IMG/VR virus record: IMGVR_UViG_3300028635_000021
Location: 1 to 37,726 of that record
Direction: 5' to 3' (one strand)
From: a virus
DNA: 37,726 nt
The position numbers were made by a program, and so were the translations under genes. Position 1 is the first letter of the stretch. Each line of letters begins with the position of its first letter. Below are positions 794 through 35,912 of the stretch, one piece after another. The notes below the pieces were generated by a model. It was not told where the DNA came from. It saw only the letters and a program-made list of their open reading frames with translations, and made no database searches.

Positions 794-843
794 ACTTTCT
801 TCTAAGCAGTAGGTCGCACGTTCGAGTCGTGCCGGGATCGCCA
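794..843 (+). other. attP core: the 3-prime part of a tRNA gene (anticodon stem-loop, variable loop, T-arm, acceptor 3-prime strand, CCA). The anticodon-loop-like cttCTaa would imply tRNA-Arg(UCU).
   Basis: T-arm gcacg/ttcgagt/cgtgc at 816-832, acceptor strand cgggatc at 833-839, then g and cca at 841-843. The loop cttctaa is at 799-805. No D-arm or proper 5-prime acceptor strand lies upstream, so this is a fragment and not a gene. Confidence 0.7.
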
Positions 844-921: not shown

Positions 922-1998
922 TCATGTCAGCGTCACCTTGGCGATCTCTGCCTTGAGGTTCTCAGGGAACAGATGCGAGTAGACGCGTTGAACCATTTGA
1001 ATTGAAGTGCCAGCGATCTTCGCAACCGCGAAGGGGTCCACTTTTGCCAGAAGCGCGTGGGTGATAAACGAATGCCGGTGGTCGTAGTTCCGCCCGGCAA
1101 TCCCGGCCGCTACAGACACCCGCTCCCATGGCCCGCGAAAGCCATCCTTTCGCATCGGCTTGGACGGATCGTCTCGGTGCGGGAACAGGAAGGGTGAGTC
1201 ACCACTGGCTGCCAATTGCTGCACAAGTAGGGCCCGGGCGGCAGCATGGATCGGCACCGGTCGCCCGCGCTTGGTCTTCGTGTCGATCTTCTTAAGGCGA
1301 ATCATGTCCGCCGGCAGATCGATCCGGTCCTTGGCGAGTTGGGTAATTTCTGACGGGCGCATTCCCATGTATTGTTCCATGACGGTGAACAGGTGGAAGG
1401 CAAGCCCTTCCTTCGCGGCTTCAGTTCGGATGGCCGCAAGTTTATCCACGGGGAAAGCCTGGCCGATCGATTCTTCTTCGCGCGCCGCTTTGAACTTGGC
1501 ATCGGGATCGAAGAGCTCAGGTTTCTCGGTCATCTTCTTCTTGCGCTTGCACCAAGTCAGGAATGAGGACAAATACTTCCGCATGTTGGCGAACTGGATC
1601 TCCGGGTTTTTGGTGCGCTCGAGTTCAACAAACTCAGGCCAAGCGTCTTCAATCTCCATCAATGATTTGCCAGTGAAGAACGGTAGGAACTTTGTTTTTC
1701 CAAACTGTGTGTATTCGTAAAGGGTCTTTGGTCGGGCGACAGCGGTCTTGTCCCCGGCCTCTTTCGCCTTGAGGAACGCCGGCCATACATCTTCGAACAT
1801 CTCTTTAGGCTTGTGCCAATCGACACCAAGAAGGATGCAGTTCTCAATGTCGTCCGTCATGCGAACGGCGGTGCTGAAGTTCTGAGTGCTGAGAGATTCC
1901 TGCACCACCACGCCACGCTTCTCGAAGCGCGCCCAGTAGAACTTTCCGCGCCGCTTGATACGCGTGTCTTTTGTCGGCTGCCAAACCTTACCGCTCAT
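922..1998 (-). CDS. int: Tyrosine integrase (site-specific recombinase).
   Basis: 358-aa ORF. The C-terminal catalytic signature is ...NYDHRHSFITHALL... (H-x-x-R) and ...MVQRVYSHLF (catalytic Tyr). It is adjacent to xis and the tRNA-like attP. Confidence 0.9.
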   Translation of the reverse strand: MSGKVWQPTKDTRIKRRGKFYWARFEKRGVVVQESLSTQNFSTAVRMTDDIENCILLGVDWHKPKEMFEDVWPAFLKAKEAGDKTAVARPKTLYEYTQFGKTKFLPFFTGKSLMEIEDAWPEFVELERTKNPEIQFANMRKYLSSFLTWCKRKKKMTEKPELFDPDAKFKAAREEESIGQAFPVDKLAAIRTEAAKEGLAFHLFTVMEQYMGMRPSEITQLAKDRIDLPADMIRLKKIDTKTKRGRPVPIHAAARALLVQQLAASGDSPFLFPHRDDPSKPMRKDGFRGPWERVSVAAGIAGRNYDHRHSFITHALLAKVDPFAVAKIAGTSIQMVQRVYSHLFPENLKAEIAKVTLT

Positions 1999-2171
1999 AG
2001 CTTCTTCACGTCTGCCTTGAGTTCGTCGGGAACGAACCTAGTCTTGCGTCCGATCTTGTGATAGCGAATCTTTTTCTTGGCCATCAACTCATAGACTGTG
2101 GACCGCGATACCTTCATGAAGGCAATCGCATCTTCAAGATCCCAAAGAGATTCAATTTTCTTTTCCCCCAC
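1995..2171 (-). CDS. xis: Excisionase / AlpA-MerR-type helix-turn-helix DNA-binding protein (58 aa, GTG start).
   Basis: Hand translation VGEKKIESLWDLEDAIAFMKVSRSTVYELMAKKKIRYHKIGRKTRFVPDELKADVKKL. Its stop overlaps the int ATG (ATGA). It is below the ORF-track size cutoff. Confidence 0.75.
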   Translation of the reverse strand: MGEKKIESLWDLEDAIAFMKVSRSTVYELMAKKKIRYHKIGRKTRFVPDELKADVKKL

Positions 2172-2179
2172 GTGTCCCC

Positions 2180-2383
2180 CTAATTGAGTTTGATCTCAGT
2201 CCATTCGCCCATTGAATTCTTAAACAGCTTTACCCCACGCTCTTTCTCTATGTCCGGAAGAGATCGATCGCCGCTACAGCCCACGCAAGGTGCAACAAAG
2301 TTCATTGGCTGTAAGGTCATCCAGCGCTTTCCATCGCAGAGCCCGCACTCGCCTTGTTCGTTAGTTCCGTACATTAGTTCCAT
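2180..2383 (-). CDS. Small Cys-rich (zinc-ribbon-like) hypothetical protein.
   Basis: 67-aa ORF with C-x-x-C ... C-x-x-C (ECGLCDG ... APCVGCSG). It is packed directly upstream of xis. Confidence 0.55.
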   Translation of the reverse strand: MELMYGTNEQGECGLCDGKRWMTLQPMNFVAPCVGCSGDRSLPDIEKERGVKLFKNSMGEWTEIKLN

Positions 2384-2772
2384 CGATTCCTCTTTCCCTT
2401 TACAATCTGACTAAGGCGCATCTTTACTGCCGGCGAGACGTTCTTGCGTGCAAATGTGAGTGCGCGGCGCAGCCGCCCAACCTCCTTGCGAAGACGCGTC
2501 GAGGCCTGGATGTACTCCTTGAAGATCTGTTCCTTCTCAAGCTTCAGAACTTCGAAAGACTTCTTATCCACAGCTGCGATGTGTTCGCTCATGAACGGGT
2601 TATTTGGATGAGGTCGAACGATGTGGCCAGTCACTCTTGGTTGCATAGCACCCCCATAAAAGAACTCGAGCCCGTCTTGTATTGAAGGAACGCTATTGGA
2701 CAATTGTGGTTTATAGACGGGCTCAAGAAAGTCTCCTTTAAGTGAACGCCTCGAGAGTTTTACAGGACCCAT
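2374..2772 (-). CDS. Hypothetical protein (132 aa).
   Basis: ORF in the operon orientation. It is preceded by the structured untranslated region. Confidence 0.55.
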   Translation of the reverse strand: MGPVKLSRRSLKGDFLEPVYKPQLSNSVPSIQDGLEFFYGGAMQPRVTGHIVRPHPNNPFMSEHIAAVDKKSFEVLKLEKEQIFKEYIQASTRLRKEVGRLRRALTFARKNVSPAVKMRLSQIVKGKRNRWN

Positions 2773-3247
2773 TCCCGCTAAGTTATGGGTGTCCCAAGGC
2801 GCTCACTTAAAGTGCCCCGATTCGTTCGGGGCCGACGCAACCGTATGACGGGCCGGTTGACCTTCGGGTTTAGTTAACGACTTTCCTTCGTCGAGCGCCT
2901 TGATTTATTCAGCCCCGCTATGTCTCACCGACACGCTACTGTGGGTCTTCTACGCTCGCACTCAACCGTTCGACCAATCCGGTAAGGCTTTTCTAAAAGT
3001 CCGAGGCCGGTCGCGACTCCGGCACCCGTCGCTCCACTGCCGTTGAGCGACTCTTGGCAGAATTCACGTGTCTCTAGTGGAATCCTTGGTCAGGTATATT
3101 GGACCGCCAATTCCACAGCTTCCCACGCCGCTCGGACAAAACTTCAAACTCTCAACAACATCAGCACTGCCCATGCAGAGCCGAGAATGCAAACAACACA
3201 AATCAAATTAAATAACCATGCAGCTGCGCTACTCACCCCGACTCTCA
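2773..3247 (-). ncRNA. Candidate structured RNA or long structured leader of unknown class.
   Basis: 475 nt with no ORF of 60 aa or more in the operon strand, inside an otherwise gap-free operon. Several helices are present: 2795-2804/2893-2902 (10 bp), 2828-2835/2909-2916, 3006-3010/3019-3023, 3028-3034/3045-3051 and 3077-3084/3109-3116. Two of these have pairs that are G-U only in the minus-strand transcript. Confidence 0.35.
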
Positions 3248-3589
3248 TCAATCACCCGATGCCATGGCAGTGCGTTCGTCGCGAGCCTTTGCCAAAAGTT
3301 CCGTAATGAACTTTGAATCTGCCTTGCTCAAGTCATTCCGCAAAGTCGCGCGCATATTCTCAACACAGCGAACAAGGTCATCAAAAAGGTTCACGCGTCT
3401 AATCAGTTCATCAACCAACTTCTGATCATCTCTGAATCCTTTGATCTGATAGAACGAAATTAGGGTGCTGCCTTTTGAGTCTTGAATCTTGATCCACTCA
3501 TCCGGAGAAAGCTCCGCGCCAGTGATGCTGCAGAACTTCGGCTTCACTTCATGCACTGATGTTAGCGGTGTCTTGAATGGTTCGCTCAT
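3248..3589 (-). CDS. Hypothetical protein (113 aa).
   Basis: ORF in operon orientation, with a 4-nt overlap with the upstream ORF. Confidence 0.55.
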   Translation of the reverse strand: MSEPFKTPLTSVHEVKPKFCSITGAELSPDEWIKIQDSKGSTLISFYQIKGFRDDQKLVDELIRRVNLFDDLVRCVENMRATLRNDLSKADSKFITELLAKARDERTAMASGD

Positions 3590-3816
3590 GTTCCAATCCT
3601 CCGAATACCTTTGAGCTTTAAAACTTCAATCATCACCGGCTTGAAGTCCGGTTGAAACAAATGGGCAACGGCCTGATCAAGTTCTTTCTGAACTTGAGTG
3701 CGCTCACTTGGTTTCCAATTGCGCGCAATCTCAAGCTGGCCTTCCCAAATCTTCCGGAACTTCGGACACATGTTGGGATGATCGGCTGGGTTACTCACGC
3801 GACTTCCTCGCCACAC
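3586..3816 (-). CDS. Hypothetical protein. The track start is a GTG at 3816; an alternative ATG at 3771 would give 61 aa.
   Basis: ORF in operon orientation. The start is ambiguous because 3795..3816 overlaps the upstream micro-ORF. Confidence 0.5.
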   Translation of the reverse strand: MWRGSRVSNPADHPNMCPKFRKIWEGQLEIARNWKPSERTQVQKELDQAVAHLFQPDFKPVMIEVLKLKGIRRIGT

Positions 3817-3962
3817 TCTTCGCGCTCACAATCGCCGACCGTGTCGCCCTCGAAGTAAACACCACGCCCACAGCATGAACGCCCGACTTCGCAATACTCT
3901 TTGCACACAACGCACATGCCGGACTCACCGATACATGTGTCACACTTTTCTGCTTCACTCAT
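3795..3962 (-). CDS. Cys-rich micro-protein (55 aa, 10 Cys).
   Basis: Hand translation MSEAEKCDTCIGESGMCVVCKEYCEVGRSCCGRGVYFEGDTVGDCEREECGEEVA. Its ATG overlaps the exonuclease stop (ATGA). It is below the ORF-track cutoff. Confidence 0.5.
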   Translation of the reverse strand: MSEAEKCDTCIGESGMCVVCKEYCEVGRSCCGRGVYFEGDTVGDCEREECGEEVA

Positions 3963-4690
3963 GCGCTCACCGAATTGCCTTCAATGATCTTGTTAGTCTC
4001 AGCGATGCGCTTCCATTGGTCGCCATACTTCACGCCAAGGCTTGCAAGCATCTTGTCCATGTCTTCAAGGAATGCAGGGATCTCGTCGTCAAAACGCTTC
4101 TGCACTTCTTCATCGCGAGGAATGGTCACGTACTTCATGGGCTGCGCAAACATGCGCGGATCAGCCTGGCCGAAGTCCCACTCACCTGCATCAAGAACAC
4201 GAATGCAGAATTGAACTTGCTTGTACCATTCCGGCTTAATCTTATCGGCGCACAAGAACTTGATATAGTTTGCGGTCCTATAGGGGCATTTAATCTCAAC
4301 GCCCTTCAGGTCCGTGACAAGACCATCGGGCGAACAGCCTTCACGGAACTTGTCGTCTTTGAATACGAATGTAACGGGCTGAACAGTAAGGCCGGTTTCA
4401 AACTCGTAACCGGCGCGCACGCCTGCCTCATTCTGTTTTCCCCAGCTCAATGCCTTGGCATCGATCTCTTCAATCTCGCTCGTACAAACCTGGCCCACCA
4501 GATCACAGAGATACGTTAGGCGCGTTTCTGAACCAGGCTTGGCAAGAGCATCACCAATCTTGCTTGCTGACAAAACACCAAGCTTTATCCTGAGCCAAGC
4601 CTCAGAGCCTTGTTCCGCGCCAATTGCGGAAATGCCGTATTGCTTTTCAAACTTCGCAAGGAGTGCATCAATCTCAGCCAGCTTCTTCAT
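3959..4690 (-). CDS. YqaJ-type viral recombinase exonuclease (lambda Exo-like PD-(D/E)XK).
   Basis: 243 aa. The N-terminal ...GSEAWLRIKLGVLSASKIGDAL... and central ...GCSPDGLV...GVEIKCP... are typical of the YqaJ family. It lies immediately downstream of RecT. Confidence 0.85.
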   Translation of the reverse strand: MKKLAEIDALLAKFEKQYGISAIGAEQGSEAWLRIKLGVLSASKIGDALAKPGSETRLTYLCDLVGQVCTSEIEEIDAKALSWGKQNEAGVRAGYEFETGLTVQPVTFVFKDDKFREGCSPDGLVTDLKGVEIKCPYRTANYIKFLCADKIKPEWYKQVQFCIRVLDAGEWDFGQADPRMFAQPMKYVTIPRDEEVQKRFDDEIPAFLEDMDKMLASLGVKYGDQWKRIAETNKIIEGNSVSA

Positions 4691-5636
4691 TCACAGTTCC
4701 CTTCTTCTTGCGCGCATTTAGCGCCAAGGCGTTCAACATGTTTTTGGATTGTGTGATCTCGGTGGCGGTCAATTCATCAATCGATCTGATCTCGCGGCGG
4801 TGAGTGGCCACTAAGTAATTCAAATACTTTTCTTCTGAGCGGTCGAGTTCGACCAAGAACTCGCGAATGGTCTTTAGGTCCTTCGCTCTTGCGTCTTCAG
4901 TCGGAGCGGCAATCAAGGCCGGTGCATTCAGGTCAACGCCGTCAGCCTCATCACTTGCGGCCACTGCTTTATCAAGGCGAGTGCGGTCCGTCTTCGGCCA
5001 AGACTTGTAACCACGGCGGATGACCGTCTTCTTGTCCATCTCAACTTCATCCGTAACCCAGGGGCATGTCTTGGAATTGTCGCGAACAAATGCCTTCCAC
5101 GCCTCTGAGCGGTCACGGATTGCATGGATGTCCTTGATTGACATGTAATCCACCAAGTACTCAGCATCCGGAGTCTTGGCGACAACATACGCGCCGACAA
5201 CTTTGCCGCGCTCGCCGAACGGGTTGAACTCATGTTGGGGGGGCGTGTTCAATCCTCTGTGCAGGAACGTATCGTTAGCGCAAACTACTTCGGCCTTCGC
5301 CCAAAGAATTGCCCCTGCATCGGTGGCAAGCTTTACGAGTCCTTGATAAGAAACGTCTAAGCAGATCTTGCCTTTGCGAGGAACCAAGTAGGCAAGCTTC
5401 TCAACGGGCGAGAGCGTGAGTCCAATTGCCGCCACATTCAAGACTGCATCTTTCAATGAATCTTGGTTTGCTGCCGCAACTCGAGTCAGGTACTCGTTCC
5501 CCTTCAAGATCTGCAATGCGTATCCACACTCTTGCGCGAACGTCACAGCGTTGTGGGTTTGCGCAAGCTTGTTGAACTGAGGCTCAAGTCCCTGAACAAT
5601 TTGAGTCACGGAATTGAGGTTGTGTTGCGCGCTCAT
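4674..5636 (-). CDS. recT: RecT-family single-strand annealing protein.
   Basis: ...DAVLNVAAIGLTLSPVEKLAYLVPRKGKICLDVSYQGLVKLA... is RecT-like. The start is placed at Met7 (5636), which overlaps the upstream stop (TAATG). Confidence 0.85.
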   Translation of the reverse strand: MSAQHNLNSVTQIVQGLEPQFNKLAQTHNAVTFAQECGYALQILKGNEYLTRVAAANQDSLKDAVLNVAAIGLTLSPVEKLAYLVPRKGKICLDVSYQGLVKLATDAGAILWAKAEVVCANDTFLHRGLNTPPQHEFNPFGERGKVVGAYVVAKTPDAEYLVDYMSIKDIHAIRDRSEAWKAFVRDNSKTCPWVTDEVEMDKKTVIRRGYKSWPKTDRTRLDKAVAASDEADGVDLNAPALIAAPTEDARAKDLKTIREFLVELDRSEEKYLNYLVATHRREIRSIDELTATEITQSKNMLNALALNARKKKGTVNEEAG

Positions 5637-5887
5637 TAACCGCGCTCCAAACAATGAGTCAGCACGCGCTGAAGTGCTTCGGCAATCTCGGGCTTACCCT
5701 CAGCATCAGCCTTCAAAATCTCGGGTGCGAAACGATTGCGTAGATACTCAGTCATTGCGTCCATCGCGCCACCAACTGGATTAGGTCGGCGAACCTTCAA
5801 GATCATTTGAGTGCACGCCTCGCGAAGGTTCGAAGGCGTACCAGATAAAATCTTCGGAGCCCCTGTCATGTTTCCATCCTCGCGCAC
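5636..5887 (-). CDS. Hypothetical early protein (83 aa).
   Basis: ORF in operon orientation. Confidence 0.5.
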   Translation of the reverse strand: MREDGNMTGAPKILSGTPSNLREACTQMILKVRRPNPVGGAMDAMTEYLRNRFAPEILKADAEGKPEIAEALQRVLTHCLERG

Positions 5888-6907: not shown

Positions 6908-7444
6908 ATGGTTTATCATTTACTTATGTTTAGAACAGTGTGCCTTTTGTTTATATGCATAAGTATCGCAGCTTGCGCCAAGGATGAGGAAACAAGTACT
7001 CAGCCCGCGGCGGCCGCTCAGCGCATTCCTGAAGAATGTACTTATCAAGTCACTGCCGCCCACACATTTATCGATGGCTATACTTTCAACGCGGACCGAT
7101 ATGACTGCGCACTTCAGTCGCGGATGTCATGCAAACTTTACGATGCAGGTGATGACCAGATCGAACTGCTGTGTGAAGAAATCAACCCGGCGCTGCCCCA
7201 AGGTGTTCCCTCAGGGTGCACGTACCAAGGCGGCAGCTCGACTTCAACTGTCCACTGGTTCATTGGGTACGGCCTTCTTTATTCAGAGGCATACACTTGC
7301 GGGTCGATCGGCGACGGCCTGGCTTGCACATACTTCACCCACCCAGGGAATCAATGCAGTGACACCAATGGAACCGCCGCCGATGATTGTGGACTCTATG
7401 AAGATGATGAAGTCCACGAAGAGATTCGCTGCTCTAAGTTCTAG
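6908..7444 (+). CDS. Cys-rich secreted lipoprotein (moron-like).
   Basis: The start is placed at Met18 of the track ORF. The signal plus lipobox is MVYHLLMFRTVCLLFICISIAAC. The mature part has 10 further Cys and an internal CTYQ...GY...Y.C duplication. An AT-rich region lies upstream. Confidence 0.65.
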   Translation: MVYHLLMFRTVCLLFICISIAACAKDEETSTQPAAAAQRIPEECTYQVTAAHTFIDGYTFNADRYDCALQSRMSCKLYDAGDDQIELLCEEINPALPQGVPSGCTYQGGSSTSTVHWFIGYGLLYSEAYTCGSIGDGLACTYFTHPGNQCSDTNGTAADDCGLYEDDEVHEEIRCSKF

Positions 7445-8025
7445 TTAACGTCAGTCCATGCGCCATTCGCCACGCCCACAGCGCTCCACAAGTTTGCACT
7501 CGTGGCCTCAAGCGTGATTGAAGAACCGATGTCAGTACAGCGAATCTCATCACCTGCAGAGGGTGTGATTGCGGCACCAGTGCCAGCGGCAACAGAGTTG
7601 ATCACTCCGATTACATCAGTCCCGTCCGCCGGATCGATGTCCATATCATCCGCTGTTCCGCAAATGAATGTATAGCGACAACCCAAAACGGTGGATGCTT
7701 CGGGCAAGGGCTGAACAGCCGCGCCGGCACTAATCACAGTCGAGCCGCATTGTGCAGCTGTTAGCGCGGTGGTGGATGCAGTTACGCGATTCTGTAAGAA
7801 ACCGTTGAGCTGGTCTCCGCCATCACCAGTGACATCACCAGTTGCCGTGAGGCTTACCGGCGTGACCGTGACCTTACCGCTGCTGATTGTACAAGACAGA
7901 CCGGATGCACACTGGATCTTGTGTGCCCCGCCAACGCGGTCGCCGGAAGAATTGTAAACCGTAAACGCCGCGTGAACATCGGCACAGAAAAACGCGGCCA
8001 TGAGAACTGAAAGAAGAAAACGCAT
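7441..8025 (-). CDS. Secreted protein with a cleavable signal peptide (moron-like).
   Basis: MRFLLSVLMAAFFCADVHA|AFT... is preceded by a perfect AGGAGG 5 nt upstream of the ATG and by its own 81-bp intergenic region. Confidence 0.65.
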   Translation of the reverse strand: MRFLLSVLMAAFFCADVHAAFTVYNSSGDRVGGAHKIQCASGLSCTISSGKVTVTPVSLTATGDVTGDGGDQLNGFLQNRVTASTTALTAAQCGSTVISAGAAVQPLPEASTVLGCRYTFICGTADDMDIDPADGTDVIGVINSVAAGTGAAITPSAGDEIRCTDIGSSITLEATSANLWSAVGVANGAWTDVN

Positions 8026-8106
8026 GAAACCCTCCTATAGGTTTTGTCTATCGTCGCAATTGCATTGATAGGTTAATCCTATGGATGGCTAGAATTCAAG
8101 TCTCGC

Positions 8107-8763
8107 TTAAGCGGCCTTCTTCTTAACTAATTGAACGTGAGGGCGATCCCAAGACAGGAACTCAACGGACACTCCAGCACGTGCAGCCGCAACCTTCATC
8201 TGTCTGCGCATCTCCGCGAATTTCGCGAGGTATTCAGGATCATCCCAATCTTTGGGATTCTTCGGGATGGGGTGAGGGTATGCATCGAATGCTGTGGACG
8301 GCATGGTGTTGTGGCGCGACTTCGGCCACGGGGCTTTCGAATACCCGCCGCGGACAGCTGCATCTTGGTCTGCCTTGTTGCGATGCCCGGTAGTGACAAC
8401 AACAGGAAAGATCTTCTCAAGCTCAGCGGCCATCTTCTGAAGATCGGGGTGACACTGAGCCAGGTTCTTTAAGCTTCGTTCATTATATTTGAAGTCACCC
8501 GTCTGAACAGGCTGCTCTCGTTCATCGGGCTTTTCGGCAAGCGCCGCGACGGCAAGCTTTAAGTGAGCGAGCGTTGTGGTGCCACAGCGGCCATCAACCG
8601 TGAGCTTCCGACTTTGCTGGAATGATCGCACCCCGGCATCAGTGCGCGGTCCGAACTTCCCATCAGCTTCGCCAATGTTAATGCCCAAGGTGATGAGCAT
8701 TCTTTGGATCTGTAAAACCTGAGGGCCTCTGCTGCCTTCTTTATAGATCGCCATTACTTGCAC
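8107..8763 (-). CDS. Endolysin: N-terminal peptidoglycan-binding domain plus C-terminal M15-type (T5-like L-alanyl-D-glutamate / VanY-like) peptidase.
   Basis: GSRGPQVLQIQRMLITLGINIGEADGKFGPRTDAGVRSFQ matches the PG_binding_1 pattern. ...GHRNKADQDAAV...SRHNTMPSTAFDAYP...WDRPHVQL matches the H-x(6)-D ... H zinc-peptidase pattern. Confidence 0.85.
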   Translation of the reverse strand: MQVMAIYKEGSRGPQVLQIQRMLITLGINIGEADGKFGPRTDAGVRSFQQSRKLTVDGRCGTTTLAHLKLAVAALAEKPDEREQPVQTGDFKYNERSLKNLAQCHPDLQKMAAELEKIFPVVVTTGHRNKADQDAAVRGGYSKAPWPKSRHNTMPSTAFDAYPHPIPKNPKDWDDPEYLAKFAEMRRQMKVAAARAGVSVEFLSWDRPHVQLVKKKAA

Positions 8764-18179: not shown

Positions 18180-20539
18180 GTTTCAGTCTCCACTTCAGAT
18201 GCGATCATTGAGACCGTGCACGGGAGCGGCTGATTTTGAACGATGTAAATGTTCTTCTCCCTCTCGGATCTGTCGAAAGGAGGGAGCTTCTTTTCACCGG
18301 TAAACAGAGGGATCGGTCTGTCGGCCTGGTGAGGTGTCGAGCGGAATTCGATCTGTTCTAATTTATAAGGATTCGTTCCATAGCTTGCGCCAAGCGAATT
18401 TATGAACTTCACCACAAGACCAGTCAGACTCTTTAACCTTCCGGGGCCAGACGCCAACGGCATAGTCTTAATTAGGCCGCGATAGTGAAGGCCCGCACTC
18501 ACATAAGCCGCCTGTTGGTCCAATGTTATAACGCCAAGACTTGAGACAATCTTAGGTGCATGAACGCCGCCGTCTGCCACGATGGTTGCTTCCGCGTGAG
18601 CTAGATGAGTTGCACCTGTAATGCTGTTTGTGGTGAGCGCCCAGTCTCCGACTGCGAGTGCATCTGTACTTGAGAATTGTCTTAGGATCTTACAGACAAC
18701 GGTGGTGGCGCTTGTGAATGTGATGATCTCGGCGCGTCCGTATCCGTTCTTCTCCCAGATCTCTCGGCCAACATCTCCAGATACAAAGACGTTTCCACTT
18801 GCCACAAAGTTAACAGCAAGACCTGTCACCGCTGCAGGAGTGAGCGTGTAGTCCTGATCATATCCGTCATATGAGAGTGCGGAATCTAAATGAAGCGCGC
18901 GGATTTGTTGATGATAGAGCGCATCTTTAAAGTCTTGATCATCTTCTTCTTCGCGTGTGGATTCGGTCCCTGAATAGTAATCTTGCCGGCGCACATACTC
19001 CGTGGGCAGATCCATAGTTTCAATGTAACTGACAGTTGAGCCACCGATCTCACGCTCTACGATGAACCACACTTGATCGGCACCCGTGGCCGTTGGAATT
19101 ACCGCCACGTCTTTAAAGGAATCCGTTGGATAAGTCTTATGCGTATGCCAAGCCAGCACGTTTTCTTTTGGATCAAGGTTTAAGCCAACAAGGCTTCCAT
19201 CCCAAAGCACGCACCAAAGAACATTCGGAGTGCCGCGCTGGTAAGCCATCTTACGGACACGCCCTCTTAAAACTTCATCGGCATACTTCGTTAAGTCATC
19301 GGGCTCGAATTTCCCGGTGGCCGGGTTCACGCCAAGGGTTAGCGCTTTCTTGCCGTCTTTTCTGATAAAGACCGGCTGATCACTAACGAGTTCCGGGCGA
19401 ATCGCCGCAACGCCTTCGTTTGTGATGTCTCTGACAAGTACATTCGTCGGAGTAACCGCATCGTTGTTTCCCCCGCCTGACATCTTCATTGCGCCCTCAG
19501 ACGCACCAATAAAAAGAAAATCAGAAGTTCCGATTAAAACTTGGATTGAATTCAAAAGCCTTGAGGCTGCGGCATAAGAGATTGCGTTCGCAGCCGCGGT
19601 GCCTGAAGTGTGAGTTGTAAACGCGCCAGCATCAGAACCACGAATGGCTTGCGGGGTGTCGATGATGTTCCCGTAAACAAGGCGCTGCTCAAAGAACGTG
19701 ATGGACTTTGGCCACTTCGAACTTGAAAACGGATCACTGCCTGAGCGCGAATAGGCTGCGCATGTCCAATCGAGTTCGTTCGAAGGCCTTGTGATCTTTC
19801 TCGGCTCGCACGTGGGGTGCACGATGTACATCACGTCATGCGCCTGGGCGTACTGCATCTCTAAGAATTCAGGTGCTGTGAATTCAACCCAGTCCGGGTC
19901 AATCGTAGTCTTCTCAAAGAAGTCATCAAACTCAGAGCCAGATGGTGTCTCATCATTCGGGACGCCGTCGTCAAAGGCCCGGTAAGGCGTAAGGCAGCCG
20001 GCGATCTGAAAAACCTTAGAGCTTGGCGAAGAAGTAAATGAACCGGTGAACTTACGCTGAACGCGGAAGTTATTAGCGTCCACCACTCTGATGACCCAAG
20101 GACCGCCGTTGTGGTTTGGCGAAACAAGGCCTGTGATCATAATCTCACAAAAATCAGGAAGGCCGTGGCCGGTGAGCTCATAACCTGTGTTGTCTATATC
20201 GTATTCGTAAACGCTGGTGATGGGCCCGATACCCGTTGGATCTTGAAGGAGCGCTCCGTCTTTAAATACGCGCATCCGTCTGTGAGTGAACTCGAGCATA
20301 TAGCTCTGCTCATCGCTGAAAACAAACGGCAAGAGCGTGGCGATCGAATCGGTCTCGCGGACAAATCTTGTGCCTTCGCGAAAGCGTGCAGGCCCCTGAC
20401 TGTAAGGGATGAAATTGATGAGCTGTTCGCAGCCAAAGAAATAAAACGGTAAGTCATAGAGCGCTTTGAGCTTTTGGCTCAACTGCCCAGCGGAGAATCG
20501 GATCTGTGTGATGGCTGACTTAAACCCCATTCGCGTCAC
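18176..20539 (-). CDS. Tail tubular protein B-like (nozzle).
   Basis: 787 aa. Its size and order match T7 gp12. Confidence 0.65.
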   Translation of the reverse strand: MTRMGFKSAITQIRFSAGQLSQKLKALYDLPFYFFGCEQLINFIPYSQGPARFREGTRFVRETDSIATLLPFVFSDEQSYMLEFTHRRMRVFKDGALLQDPTGIGPITSVYEYDIDNTGYELTGHGLPDFCEIMITGLVSPNHNGGPWVIRVVDANNFRVQRKFTGSFTSSPSSKVFQIAGCLTPYRAFDDGVPNDETPSGSEFDDFFEKTTIDPDWVEFTAPEFLEMQYAQAHDVMYIVHPTCEPRKITRPSNELDWTCAAYSRSGSDPFSSSKWPKSITFFEQRLVYGNIIDTPQAIRGSDAGAFTTHTSGTAAANAISYAAASRLLNSIQVLIGTSDFLFIGASEGAMKMSGGGNNDAVTPTNVLVRDITNEGVAAIRPELVSDQPVFIRKDGKKALTLGVNPATGKFEPDDLTKYADEVLRGRVRKMAYQRGTPNVLWCVLWDGSLVGLNLDPKENVLAWHTHKTYPTDSFKDVAVIPTATGADQVWFIVEREIGGSTVSYIETMDLPTEYVRRQDYYSGTESTREEEDDQDFKDALYHQQIRALHLDSALSYDGYDQDYTLTPAAVTGLAVNFVASGNVFVSGDVGREIWEKNGYGRAEIITFTSATTVVCKILRQFSSTDALAVGDWALTTNSITGATHLAHAEATIVADGGVHAPKIVSSLGVITLDQQAAYVSAGLHYRGLIKTMPLASGPGRLKSLTGLVVKFINSLGASYGTNPYKLEQIEFRSTPHQADRPIPLFTGEKKLPPFDRSEREKNIYIVQNQPLPCTVSMIASEVETET

Positions 20540-21141
20540 TCATAAATGTCACCGCGACGGGTTTTGATTCCGCGCCGGGCTGATCTTAGGCGTGAGCGGT
20601 GGATGCGTTTAGGTGGAGATTCTTGTCCGTCAGTGGCGTGAGCATCGGCGCTGGCTTCATCAAGAAGCTCTTTGAAGTCGCCAATCATATCCTTCTTGCC
20701 GCACCCAGGAGCCAGGTACATCGCAAGATCAAGCTTCAAGACTTCAACGGCTTGCGCGTCCCACTTGGAAATATTGGTGCAGTCATAAATGTAACGAAAG
20801 TTCAGCGTGCCGGATTCGTTGCACAAGAGTGTTCCGTCTTCGATTGCATAGTCAACGAGGCCCAGGTCGGCTGCGTCCACGAATCTTATAAAGTCAGACG
20901 GCAATTGATAGGCGGTGGAGTATTCGTATTCAGGCTCAGCAGCAAGCGCTGGCAGGGATACGCGTTTGGTTGCGAAGTTCCAGGTGTGGCGTCGAAGAAC
21001 CGCGCGGCGTCTAGCGTCGTACCAACGCGCAACACGCTTACCTAATCTGTCCGTTGGGTTGGTGATGTTCGCAATGGGTTCTTCACTAAGAAGATCCAAG
21101 CTTGCATTGCACACATCTAAACCGGAATTAGGAGCGGCCAT
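20536..21141 (-). CDS. Tail tubular protein A-like / adaptor.
   Basis: The start is placed at the ATG at 21141, behind gaaagggtgttg. ...CNASLDLLSEEPIANITNP...RWYDARRRAVLRRHTWNFATKR...YQLPSDFIRF fits the podovirus gp11-type pattern. Confidence 0.65.
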   Translation of the reverse strand: MAAPNSGLDVCNASLDLLSEEPIANITNPTDRLGKRVARWYDARRRAVLRRHTWNFATKRVSLPALAAEPEYEYSTAYQLPSDFIRFVDAADLGLVDYAIEDGTLLCNESGTLNFRYIYDCTNISKWDAQAVEVLKLDLAMYLAPGCGKKDMIGDFKELLDEASADAHATDGQESPPKRIHRSRLRSARRGIKTRRGDIYE

Positions 21142-21220
21142 CAACACCCTTTCAATCAAGAAAGGGTGCGAGCACAACTAAGCGCCCGCACCCCAGGAGG
21201 GGAAGCAAATCAGAAAGGGC

Positions 21221-21700
21221 TTAGCCCTGCTTGACCCACAAAATTGCGGAGATAGTTCCGGCAGCCGAACCAACTGTGTTTGCAGTCAGAACGATGTCGT
21301 AGGCCGGAAGGCGCTGAGCTTGAGTGTGACCTGCAAGTTCGAATAAACGCTTGCCACGGTTTTCAATGGCAACGTCTTTCAAACCATCAAGAACTTTCGA
21401 CGCACTCGAAAGATCAAGGCCGTCGGCCAAGTTGTCCTTATCGATGACTGCGCCGAGGTCAGGCTTGTAAAAGCCAACATCGTAATCAGTGCCCGCGGTG
21501 ATCGCATCGCACATGATAGTCATCGAAACCGGAATCAAGTCAGCGGCGAGGCCTTTGAACAAACGGTATTTCGAACCATCGTCGTCAGCTGCGAGCGTTT
21601 CAAAGGTTACGAACAAAGGCCAAGCTTGCGAACCGGCTGCGCCTTGCGAGCGGTTGCCAGCTGCCACATCAGAATTTACATATTTATCTTGAACTGCCAT
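21221..21700 (-). CDS. Capsid-associated protein (possibly a decoration or cement protein).
   Basis: 159 aa, directly downstream of the major capsid gene. Confidence 0.45.
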   Translation of the reverse strand: MAVQDKYVNSDVAAGNRSQGAAGSQAWPLFVTFETLAADDDGSKYRLFKGLAADLIPVSMTIMCDAITAGTDYDVGFYKPDLGAVIDKDNLADGLDLSSASKVLDGLKDVAIENRGKRLFELAGHTQAQRLPAYDIVLTANTVGSAAGTISAILWVKQG

Positions 21701-34051: not shown

Positions 34052-35541
34052 GTATCACCTTGATCTTTCAGAACAGTTAGATTTATCCAGGCATTGAAGA
34101 GCGTGAAGAACGTAGTCGGAGCAAAGTCCTCGAACCGATCGAGGCGCTTGCCAATCCCAATTAGCGTGAGTGTTGTAGATATACAGATGACATAGAACAT
34201 TGCATTTCTAAATTGTAAGAAGCGCTCAACCTTCTTTGTGTTTCCCGACGGCTGCCATGAAACGAGCTCGCCCCTTAGCTTATCGATGAACGCAAAGAAG
34301 TAAGCATAGCTCGCGACTTGTCTCGCGCGTGGTGCATACAGCCCGAACTTGTGCGTTGTCCACATTGGAACAACAAGGAAGCCATAGAGAAACGAAGGGA
34401 AACTAAAGACTAGGTTGTACCAATGAACAAGCTCAGGGAAAAACCAGATAAGAATTAGACTCGGCATTGAGATCAAAAACACAGTCACGCCGCTTGAAAT
34501 ATAGAAGAGCATTCCACTTAGGTAACAAGCCTTCTGCATGATGGTTAGATTCGATGTCCAAAATTTCCGACTTAGGAATAGCGAGATTGAGCCCGTTGCC
34601 CAGCGGTATTGCTGCAGAAAGAAGCTCTTTAAATCATTCGGGCATATGCCACGCGCGAGACACACCGGAACATACTTCACCCGCCATCCAGCGTCCGTAA
34701 CCATGAAGCCAGTGTGCACGTCCTCAGAGTATGCAATCGCAGCGGTTCCACCAAAGGGTTCGAGCGCTGACCTTCTATAGAGAGCGTTGGAGCCCACACA
34801 AATGGGCGCTCTAAAGTGATCGCGTGAAACTTGGATCAGCCGATAGAAAAGTTCTTGAATATAACCCGCACCCTTCTCAACCCACGTCTGCTCATTGAGC
34901 ACGCTAAAGAACTGAGGCGTCTGCACAATCGCGGTTGTTGGATCATTGTGCATATAGATAAGCGTCTCTTGGAGGAAGTTCGGATGAGGACAAAAGTCAG
35001 CGTCGAAGACTACGAAGAAATCTCCGGACGTTTGAGCAAAGGCGTTTCGTAAATTGCCAGCCTTCTTAAGCTCCCCTGGGTTGGCGCGCGTAATGTAGTT
35101 GAAGCCAAACTCTTCAGCCAAAAATTTCACATGCAGATCAGCTGCATCGTCGAGAACAAAAACCTTTAGGCTCTTGTAGCTAAGTCTCGAGATATGAATC
35201 CATGTATTTCGAAGTACCTCAAGGGGTTCGCCACACACGGGCAAGTAAACGTCAACGGATCCCATGTCGTAGTTGAACTGAAGACTTGAAAGAACTCGAT
35301 GCTGTTCAAAATCAAAGTCGCGCCCGAGAAGGCCAATCAAATAAGATAGCCCTAGGTACACAGTCATGACGACCGCATAAGCTGAGAAGAAGAACAATGC
35401 TGGATGTGCGGTGACGTATAGCCAAAGACCGACAAGCAAACTCAGGACACTCAAAACTCCCGGCGCATACAGGGAGTATCGCCGGGGTTTCGAATACATG
35501 AACCGCTCGAAGTCTTCGGGCGCTTTCGGTAGAACTACCAT
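34048..35541 (-). CDS. Integral-membrane processive family-2 glycosyltransferase of the BcsA/CrdS (cellulose-synthase-like) type, without a PilZ domain.
   Basis: 497 aa. Ordered motifs are VFVLDD, KKAGNLRNAF, VVFDADF, QTPQFF, VGSNALYRRSAL, SEDVHTGF and QQYRWATG (Q-x-x-R-W). There are two N-terminal and several C-terminal hydrophobic segments. Confidence 0.85.
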   Translation of the reverse strand: MVVLPKAPEDFERFMYSKPRRYSLYAPGVLSVLSLLVGLWLYVTAHPALFFFSAYAVVMTVYLGLSYLIGLLGRDFDFEQHRVLSSLQFNYDMGSVDVYLPVCGEPLEVLRNTWIHISRLSYKSLKVFVLDDAADLHVKFLAEEFGFNYITRANPGELKKAGNLRNAFAQTSGDFFVVFDADFCPHPNFLQETLIYMHNDPTTAIVQTPQFFSVLNEQTWVEKGAGYIQELFYRLIQVSRDHFRAPICVGSNALYRRSALEPFGGTAAIAYSEDVHTGFMVTDAGWRVKYVPVCLARGICPNDLKSFFLQQYRWATGSISLFLSRKFWTSNLTIMQKACYLSGMLFYISSGVTVFLISMPSLILIWFFPELVHWYNLVFSFPSFLYGFLVVPMWTTHKFGLYAPRARQVASYAYFFAFIDKLRGELVSWQPSGNTKKVERFLQFRNAMFYVICISTTLTLIGIGKRLDRFEDFAPTTFFTLFNAWINLTVLKDQGDT

Positions 35542-35912
35542 AGATTAATCGTGAGCTTTCCAATGATCTCTTGAACTACGGTGTCTTCCGAAAGCTCACC
35601 TTCACGTGGGCGATATGCCAGACGAATACCCGGAGACACAGTCAAGAATTCGCCCACGAATATATCCACGGAGTTCTTCGTGACGAACCACTTCGAGTAA
35701 GAGTCACCCTCATCTTCAAGCATAGAGTCACCAAAGCCAGTCCATGAATTCAAAGCAGCTCTATCAGAAATGAGAGTCTCATAAATCCCAAGGCCAACCA
35801 TGTAAGTGGTTTGTTCATTCTTCGGATTATATCGCGGCTCGAAAGATAGCTTGCCGCTTGCGAACACAGAACCAGTAAAGAACATAAACATTAGAATCAA
35901 AGTTGCACGCAT
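35535..35912 (-). CDS. Small exported protein, possibly an outer-membrane beta-barrel.
   Basis: The start is placed at the ATG at 35912, behind tagggggtatttat. The signal peptide is MRATLILMFMFFTGSVFA. It has alternating hydrophobic strands and ends ...GKLTINLW. It overlaps the GT2 start by 7 nt. Confidence 0.55.
   Translation of the reverse strand: MRATLILMFMFFTGSVFASGKLSFEPRYNPKNEQTTYMVGLGIYETLISDRAALNSWTGFGDSMLEDEGDSYSKWFVTKNSVDIFVGEFLTVSPGIRLAYRPREGELSEDTVVQEIIGKLTINLW

Follow-up and report, generated by a model that had tools for sequence, protein, structure and literature searches.

A 21-bp helix and a terminator-like hairpin in a gene-free stretch of a phage early operon

We analysed a gene-free stretch in the IMG/VR record IMGVR_UViG_3300028635_000021, whose full 37,726 nucleotides (nt) are called the window below. 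The window represents the complete, circularly permuted genome (∼37.6 kb) of an uncultivated temperate phage and almost all genes of the phage are carried by the minus strand. In the original prediction positions 2773-3247 were described as an island without open reading frames (ORFs) that is rich in helices and might form a large structured RNA of 475 nt. We found that the significant structure covers roughly 160-250 nt at the 3' end of the region, and that much of it lies outside 2773-3247. It is made up of a 21-bp helix (helix A) and an adjoining 13-bp helix with a U-rich tail (helix B). The reading that we favour, if tentatively, is that the island is a composite of a mini-ORF, a spacer and a cis-acting 3' processing/termination module, and not a large non-coding RNA (ncRNA). 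The positions of all elements are given in Table 1.

The gap and the genes around it

On the minus strand the genes are arranged in the order RecT, YqaJ, small ORFs, 113-aa ORF, gap, ORFans, excisionase (xis) and integrase (int). The segment bearing the gap is the counterpart of the lambdoid exo-xis region and the variable part of the leftward early operon. No stretch without a codon-supported ORF is larger in the whole 37.7-kb window. As originally stated, there is no minus-strand ORF of at least 60 aa in 2773-3247 and the genes on either side overlap or abut. Gene callers placed no gene in the gap in three independent assemblies, and scanning 2300-3800 gave no promoter-like sites on either strand. 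A frameshift-corrected ORF across the gap was rejected, as several stops occur in all six frames and the sequence is identical in the ENA, JGI and Logan assemblies. The plus-strand ORFs in the gap (including one of 87 aa at 3043-3306) were also rejected: they are of low complexity, have no Shine-Dalgarno sequence and match no family. The translated frames of the gap gave no protein-family match. The segment 2180-3589, which holds the 113-aa, mini-, 90/72-aa and 67-aa ORFs, is wholly ORFan.

Table 1. Position and strand of the features at the gap and of related sites in the window
Feature	Position	Strand	Description
RecT gene	4674-5654	-	leftward early operon
YqaJ exonuclease gene	3959-4690	-	leftward early operon; small ORFs next
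113-aa ORF	3248-3589	-	just upstream of the gap
Candidate mini-ORF	3144-3248	-	34 codons, MRVGVSSAAAWLFNLICVVCILGSAWAVLMLLRV + stop; predicted single transmembrane helix
Spacer without detectable signal	2903-3143	-	local hairpins 3116-3077 and 3051-3028
Metastable multi-hairpin domain (predicted)	2793-2902	-	closed by 10-bp helix 2902-2893/2804-2795; hairpins 2859-2838 and 2832-2814
Helix A	2736-2812	-	2812-2792 with 2756-2736; 21 uninterrupted bp, 35-nt loop
Helix B	2656-2727	-	13-bp G+C-rich stem 2727-2715/2677-2665, 37-nt loop, then UUCUUUUAU (2664-2656)
Ribosome-binding site GGGGG (2655-2651) and AUG 2646	2644-2655	-	probable start of the downstream gene
Downstream ORFan gene	2374-2646	-	90 aa from AUG 2646, or 72 aa from AUG 2592; listed as 132 aa from AUG 2772
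67-aa ORF	between the listed 132-aa ORF and xis	-	
HTH_17 excisionase gene (xis)	1995-2171	-	
Tyrosine integrase gene (int)	922-1998	-	
tRNA-Arg(UCU) 3' fragment	799-843	+	probable attP core, directly downstream of int (stop at 922)
Canonical intrinsic terminator	21163-21194	-	13-bp stem, 9 G-C pairs, 6-nt loop, tail UUCUUGAUU

About 105 nt of the island are occupied by the mini-ORF. It begins with an ATG (3248-3246) that shares the sequence ATGA (3250-3246) with the TGA stop of the 113-aa gene and is preceded by GGGTGA 3 nt upstream. The six frames of the window hold 95 ATG-started ORFs of 30-45 aa, and among these the mini-ORF ranks first in hydrophobicity, with a grand average of hydropathy (GRAVY) of 1.77. 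It is a probable small membrane-peptide gene, judged from these sequence features, and would be translationally coupled to the 113-aa gene upstream. Against this count an ambiguous codon score (-0.11), the lack of a protein-family match and the fact that the gene callers do not call it. As the mini-ORF is shorter than 60 aa it was overlooked in the original prediction, in which its U-rich coding sequence (3248-3144) appeared as an 'AT-rich tract' at 3190-3225. A hydrophobic peptide of ∼34 aa with a single transmembrane helix beside a highly structured RNA is reminiscent of type I toxin-antitoxin systems. Unlike in those systems, the mini-ORF is coupled to an upstream gene and does not lie in a tightly folded mRNA of its own, no antisense promoter or RNA was found in 2300-3800, no terminator-like hairpin is present on the plus strand at the gap and the peptide matches no family.

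Folding of the 3' end

A strand-neutral DNA search of the whole window ranked helix A first among the non-palindromic inverted repeats. It is also the longest helix of Watson-Crick and G·U pairs that is possible in the genome, the maximum on the plus strand being 15 bp, and not one of 150 dinucleotide-shuffled genomes reached a length of 21 bp. In the minus-sense RNA it consists of 18 Watson-Crick and 3 G·U pairs, and the same 3 positions are A·C on the plus strand. Its pair probability is 0.99 and its folding energy (ΔG) -39.4 kcal/mol. Compared to dinucleotide shuffles, the 120-nt window 2730-2849 folds with a z of -6.65 on the minus strand vs -2.94 on the plus strand. We obtained a z of -5.26 for 2725-2915, and for 2580-3150, which includes both helices, -4.92 on the minus strand vs -2.07 on the plus strand. 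When the minus strand of the genome was scanned in 200-nt windows, 2701-2900 ranked 2nd of 251. With 21 consecutive pairs helix A also has the ∼20-22 bp of continuous double-stranded RNA (dsRNA) that make a substrate of RNase III size, the enzyme being known to hold ∼22 bp of dsRNA (PMC6212723).

Helix B has 8 G-C pairs and one minus-specific G·U pair in its stem (pair probability 0.94, ΔG -22.2). On the minus strand only, it shows the defining feature of an intrinsic terminator, a G+C-rich stem directly followed by a U-rich tail. Across both strands of the genome only two sites combine a stem of at least 10 bp with such a direct tail, namely helix B and 21194-21163, and for stems of at least 13 bp the shuffles led us to expect 0.12 such sites per strand. 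The tails of both sites start with UUCUU. The second site comes after a structural gene; the genes on its two sides are those of 159 aa (21221-21700) and 213 aa (20536-21177).

In the helices we examined there are 6 non-Watson-Crick positions, each of which is G·U in the minus sense but A·C in the plus sense. Two of the helices concerned, hairpin 3077-3116 and the 8-bp pairing 2828-2835/2909-2916, had already been reported with one such position each, and we could confirm both. Another 4 of the 6 positions fall within the inverted repeats of helices A and B, which were found by the strand-neutral DNA search. As 4/4 of the repeat mismatches are G·U in the minus sense, the chance of the pattern without selection on the RNA is roughly 0.001-0.01.

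The picture is different for the island as originally delimited. The helices named in the prediction are present: we recovered the perfect 10-bp repeat 2795-2804/2893-2902, the 8-bp pairing and the hairpins 3028-3051 and 3077-3116, and also the hairpin with the 'CGAA tetraloop', the stem of which has 3 bp only. Nevertheless, 2773-3247 as a whole does not fold as a helix-rich region, with a z of -0.96 on the minus and -1.07 on the plus strand. The 120-nt windows across 2820-3269 ranged from +0.44 to -1.86 on both strands. The two local hairpins of the spacer have pair probabilities of 0.98-1.00, yet they are not beyond chance, and the only minus-strand ORF of at least 30 aa in 2903-3143 is a 45-aa ORF starting with TTG (3064-3201), which has the codon score of non-coding sequence (-0.24).

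The 10-bp repeat had been taken as a closing helix for four short hairpins. The 5' arm of helix A includes 2795-2804, hence helix A and the 10-bp helix exclude each other. The 120-nt window around the closed domain (2790-2909) has a z of about -3.2, which is similar on the two strands (-3.3 minus, -3.1 plus), and the isolated 110-nt domain has a ΔG of -47.1 kcal/mol. Folding of the growing transcript predicts that this domain is formed first, persists until about position 2745 is transcribed and is replaced by the much stronger helix A after 2756-2736 has been made. The total energy is -109.1 kcal/mol with helix A vs -97.3 kcal/mol with the 10-bp helix enforced, and the latter is thus predicted to exist only transiently, as a co-transcriptional intermediate. 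Since helix B is the same in either state, there is no terminator/antiterminator logic.

How much of this could belong to one large RNA? According to this explanation the region encodes a discrete structured ncRNA of several hundred nt, or a riboswitch-like sensing leader, which is transcribed from the operon strand and works via its tertiary fold. The gap is the largest non-coding stretch of a densely packed genome, the operon strand shows the folding excess for 2580-3150 given above, the multi-branch domain alternates with a long helix, and a stable 3' fragment could be delimited by the terminator-like end at 2656. The minus-specific structure and a plausible leader-like placement are what remains of the original idea. 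Long phage non-coding stretches with a predicted multi-branch structure on the sense strand are also seen in GOLLD, ROOL and riboswitch leaders. In contrast to those, the gap shows no folding excess along most of its length and no conservation, it matches no Rfam family, and the only helices that reach significance are long, simple hairpins. The likely mini-ORF takes up part of the interval, a further ∼240 nt fold no better than shuffles (2820-3269, or ∼60% of the interval, is indistinguishable from them), z is about -1 on both strands for the interval as stated, and neither a promoter-like site nor a homologue in any collection was found. That the terminator-like hairpin is left unaffected by the alternative pairing speaks against a riboswitch leader in particular. 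For these reasons we consider a large ncRNA quite unlikely.

The Rfam scan that had been proposed as a check (Rfam 15) returned 0 matches over the whole window at gathering thresholds; the families covered include transfer-messenger RNA, RNase P, group I/II introns, riboswitches, GOLLD/ROOL, ribozymes and CRISPR repeats. With E up to 10 the only match in 2600-3450 was snoZ266 (E=2.4), which lies inside the 113-aa gene and is noise. ARAGORN found no tRNA or transfer-messenger RNA. Two further candidates were rejected: a retron ncRNA, since there is no reverse transcriptase, and a nut/boxB site, which was checked by eye only and for which the pentaloop ACGAA is not GNRA-like and the distance from the likely early promoter region is 3 kb.

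We also asked if the repeats might act at the level of the DNA, as an attP site, a replication origin or a protein-binding inverted repeat. The large non-coding stretch lies near the int-xis module and holds three GAGCGCC-like cores in alternating orientation (2745-2751, 2798-2804 and 2893-2899). However, attP was identified at 799-843 instead, the base composition is not AT-rich, neither iterons nor tandem repeats are present, the arm spacings of 35-37 nt are unlike those of operators, and a G·U pattern restricted to the minus strand is meaningless for duplex DNA. A DNA-level site is therefore very improbable. A dispersed repeat element was rejected as well, as the core of helix A (AAGGCGCTCAC) has no other exact copy in the window. 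Near-matches to the core with at most 2 mismatches are more frequent than in shuffles (30 vs 13.5 ± 4.1, with 0 of 100 shuffles reaching 30). They are scattered over coding regions on both strands and their excess probably reflects oligonucleotide or codon bias and not a repeat element.

The length of the untranslated region depends on where the downstream gene starts. In the list of ORFs this gene begins at AUG 2772, but we found that the 132-aa version is probably over-extended and that the gene is more likely 90 or 72 aa long. AUG 2646 is the likelier true start: its context uaugggggugcuAUG matches that of the xis start uagggggacacGUG, with GGGGG-N4 in both. The 90-aa product from this codon is called on one Logan contig (P0003), and the 72-aa version in two of the three assemblies inspected; AUG 2592 has no Shine-Dalgarno sequence. 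AUG 2772 is base-paired and lacks a properly spaced Shine-Dalgarno sequence, which most genes of the phage have. Codon scores of 0.28, -0.29 and 0.08 were obtained for the 72-aa part, 2593-2646 and 2647-2772, respectively. In an AlphaFold2 model of the 132-aa reading, residues 1-58 stay below 50 in the predicted local distance difference test score (pLDDT) and have hardly any secondary structure; residues 59-131 are helical with pLDDT rising to about 90-96 from residue 81. Based on the evidence for the start site the non-coding region most likely begins at 3143 and reaches 2647 or further.

If the 132-aa ORF were genuine, helix A would be a fold-back element of translational control that masks its start in read-through transcripts and helix B would merely be located within coding sequence. 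The frame is indeed open from 2772, with the codon score just given. AUG 2772 lies exactly in the loop of helix A, where it is paired in a 6-bp inner stem (2790-2785/2772-2767) as expected for start occlusion, and an alternative structure that removes helix A exists. On the other hand, a 42-codon open frame arises by chance with a probability of about 0.13, the gene calls of all three assemblies leave AUG 2772 unused, residues 1-58 are predicted to be disordered and an internal terminator-like hairpin with a U-run would abort the mRNA of the gene itself. Together with the missing Shine-Dalgarno sequence this makes a start at AUG 2772 unlikely. Selenocysteine read-through of the UGA in helix A was considered because an inner hairpin starts 12 nt past this codon. 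It was rejected, as the frame upstream lacks a start codon and contains a further UAA.

Relatives and a possible role in the operon

Exact-protein look-ups recovered only identical copies of the same phage, and the public copies (L001-L003, L005 and L006) are 100% identical over 2300-3700. Such copies recur in unrelated assemblies (ENA ERZ27257504 and ERZ27257494, JGI 3300028629 and Logan SRR8476335). Chance matches of 26 nt were all that blastn and megablast recovered from phages, E. coli genomes and plasmids. The 113-aa, 132-aa and 67-aa proteins matched only themselves among 5.8 billion proteins, and a full HMMER search with the 132-aa ORF against 1.84 billion proteins likewise returned only the ORF itself. 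We found no viral contigs carrying both flanking proteins, and scans of genome, metagenome and viral collections with a DNA pattern of helix A gave 0 matches.

Relatives were then sought in viral contigs via the integrase and YqaJ. This yielded L004/L008 and L007, as well as a remote integrase in L009 (24% identity); the genome collection contained no relatives and the metagenome collection only two fragments of 1.1 kb. The integrases of L004/L008 and L007 are ∼50% identical to that of the phage and the YqaJ of L004/L008 is 53% identical. Upstream of xis both relatives have different, tightly packed protein genes, which in L004/L008 are located between exo and xis. The gap itself was not detected in the relatives by blastn, tblastx, a search for inverted repeats or a covariance model of helices A and B. 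The original prediction had named replacement by protein genes in relatives as evidence against a functional RNA, and this is what we observed in the two relatives examined, although these are distant and the test is hence a weak one.

The same comparison bears on a further explanation, namely that the gap is the debris of one or more decayed accessory genes in a mosaic region with fast turnover, and that the hairpins have no role beyond incidental mRNA stability. The segment from the 113-aa to the 67-aa ORF is unique to the phage, and unrelated genes in the equivalent interval of the relatives are typical of high-turnover moron regions. The central 240 nt are without signal. The codon score in the frame of the downstream ORF is mildly elevated (-0.03 to -0.13) over about 2925-2670 despite stops, which hints at a decayed extension. 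A 21-bp helix found in 0/150 shuffles next to a 13-bp U-tailed helix with an expectation of 0.12, with 4/4 mismatches being G·U, is nevertheless hard to obtain via decay. Moreover, a useless 0.5 kb is rarely kept in compact phage genomes, and the translated frames match no protein family. We regard decay as a rather unlikely origin of the region.

For the composite that we favour, we infer termination, cleavage by RNase III and a regulatory consequence from the hairpins, whose sequence, excess over shuffles and strand specificity are observed, as follows. In the emerging transcript the 110-nt multi-hairpin domain would form first and would then be displaced by helix A. Helix A would offer a duplex of the size of an RNase III substrate and would bury the spurious AUG 2772. 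Helix B and its U-run, 10 nt ahead of the Shine-Dalgarno sequence and start codon (AUG 2646) of the following gene, may act as an intrinsic terminator or as a stabiliser of the 3' end. The module could thereby serve as a barrier or processing point which uncouples the upstream recombination and accessory genes from the 90aa-67aa-xis-int block in expression and stability, and the latter would be expressed only from read-through (antiterminated) or processed transcripts.

In lambda, N-antiterminated transcription must pass the tL terminators to reach xis-int. Internal intrinsic terminators t1-t5 have been predicted in the exo-xis region transcribed from pL in lambda and phi24B (PMC4195576). The module resembles t1-t5 in lying on the operon strand after the recombination genes and before xis-int, in having a G+C-rich hairpin with a U-run between accessory ORFs and, by analogy, in the lower distal expression that would be expected unless transcription is antiterminated. 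It differs from the lambda terminators, which have short loops, in the 13-bp stem and 37-nt loop of helix B, and there is no sequence similarity. Helix B is also preceded by the 21-bp helix and ∼350 nt of untranslated RNA, and unlike in lambda no antitermination system was identified in this phage (the nut/boxB check being made by eye).

Known RNase III or regulatory hairpins of early phage transcripts include lambda sib, which is involved in retroregulation of int, the site in the N leader of lambda and the intercistronic R sites of T7. Helix A is similar to these in being a near-perfect duplex of about two turns in an intercistronic position of an early polycistronic mRNA, in this case beside the integration and excision genes. 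By analogy with RNase III sites, cleavage would separate or destabilise the flanking cistrons. In contrast to sib, which lies downstream of int and beyond attP, helix A is located upstream of xis-int, and in contrast to the T7 R sites, which have internal loops, it is uninterrupted.

A more elaborate role would be a co-transcriptional switch, in which a phage or host factor stabilises either the 110-nt domain or helix A and thereby gates xis and int, and/or a stable trans-acting RNA of ∼90-160 nt from the 3' end, which would be released by RNase III cleavage in helix A together with termination at helix B. We consider either of these improbable.

Several observations weigh against the processing/termination module. 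The loop of helix B (37 nt) is far above that of typical intrinsic terminators (3-10 nt) and has a weak inner stem of 3 bp, a simple terminator scan does not list the hairpin, and no antiterminator pairing against it was found. The codon score of 2647-2772 is intermediate, so AUG 2772 could be the real start. No comparable hairpin is present at this position in the two relatives examined, and the element is thus not a conserved feature of the lineage. The case for selection on the helices is built on one sequence, the gap and its flanking genes being without homologue. Finally, RNase III in the host and terminator rules of the E. coli type are assumptions.

If the reading is correct, a temperate phage outside the lambda group separates its recombination and accessory genes from xis-int by an unusually long helix followed by a terminator, within an exo-xis region that is poorly understood. 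The element is unique to one uncultivated phage with no evidence of conservation, which limits its wider significance. As seen in this single ORFan segment, the hairpins amount to fairly ordinary operon punctuation and belong to a known kind, the regulatory hairpins or terminators of phage early operons. For the annotation of the genome the analysis suggests three corrections: the downstream gene probably has 90 or 72 aa, a 34-aa membrane-peptide gene was probably missed, and attP is placed at 799-843.

The attachment site and other sites in the window

The fragment at 799-843 begins with the anticodon loop (CUUCUAA), continues over the T arm and reaches ...GGGATCGCCA. Rfam gave a partial tRNA match at 771-840 (18 bits, E=0.99); in 2600-3450 there was no tRNA-like match with E up to 10. 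The fragment is the best-conserved DNA (78-84%) shared with L004 (5625-5683) and L007 (8148-8192). Because a tRNA-Arg fragment is conserved there beside int, we place attP at this position and not in the gap. The sequence of the fragment implies that the phage would integrate into a host tRNA-Arg gene. A 163-aa ORF on the minus strand (434-925) overlaps the end of int and spans the attP/tRNA fragment. It is listed by the gene callers but failed the codon-score filter, and may be spurious at least in part.

Against 200 shuffles, a second strongly folded stretch of the operon strand was detected at 35401-35600 (minus strand; z -6.10, ΔG -82.2 kcal/mol). It straddles the point where the 142-aa gene meets the start codon (ATG 35541) of the 497-aa gene and contains a long irregular hairpin at ∼35470-35510. 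This fold could serve translational or processing control at the head of the 497-aa gene. At 8037-8082, in the short gap between the 194-aa gene (7441-8025) and the 218-aa gene (8107-8763), both of which are on the minus strand, we observed an imperfect overlapping palindrome of 27 nt (ATAGGTTTTGTCTATCGTCGCAATTGC / GCAATTGCATTGATAGGTTAATCCTAT), which could be a protein-binding site.

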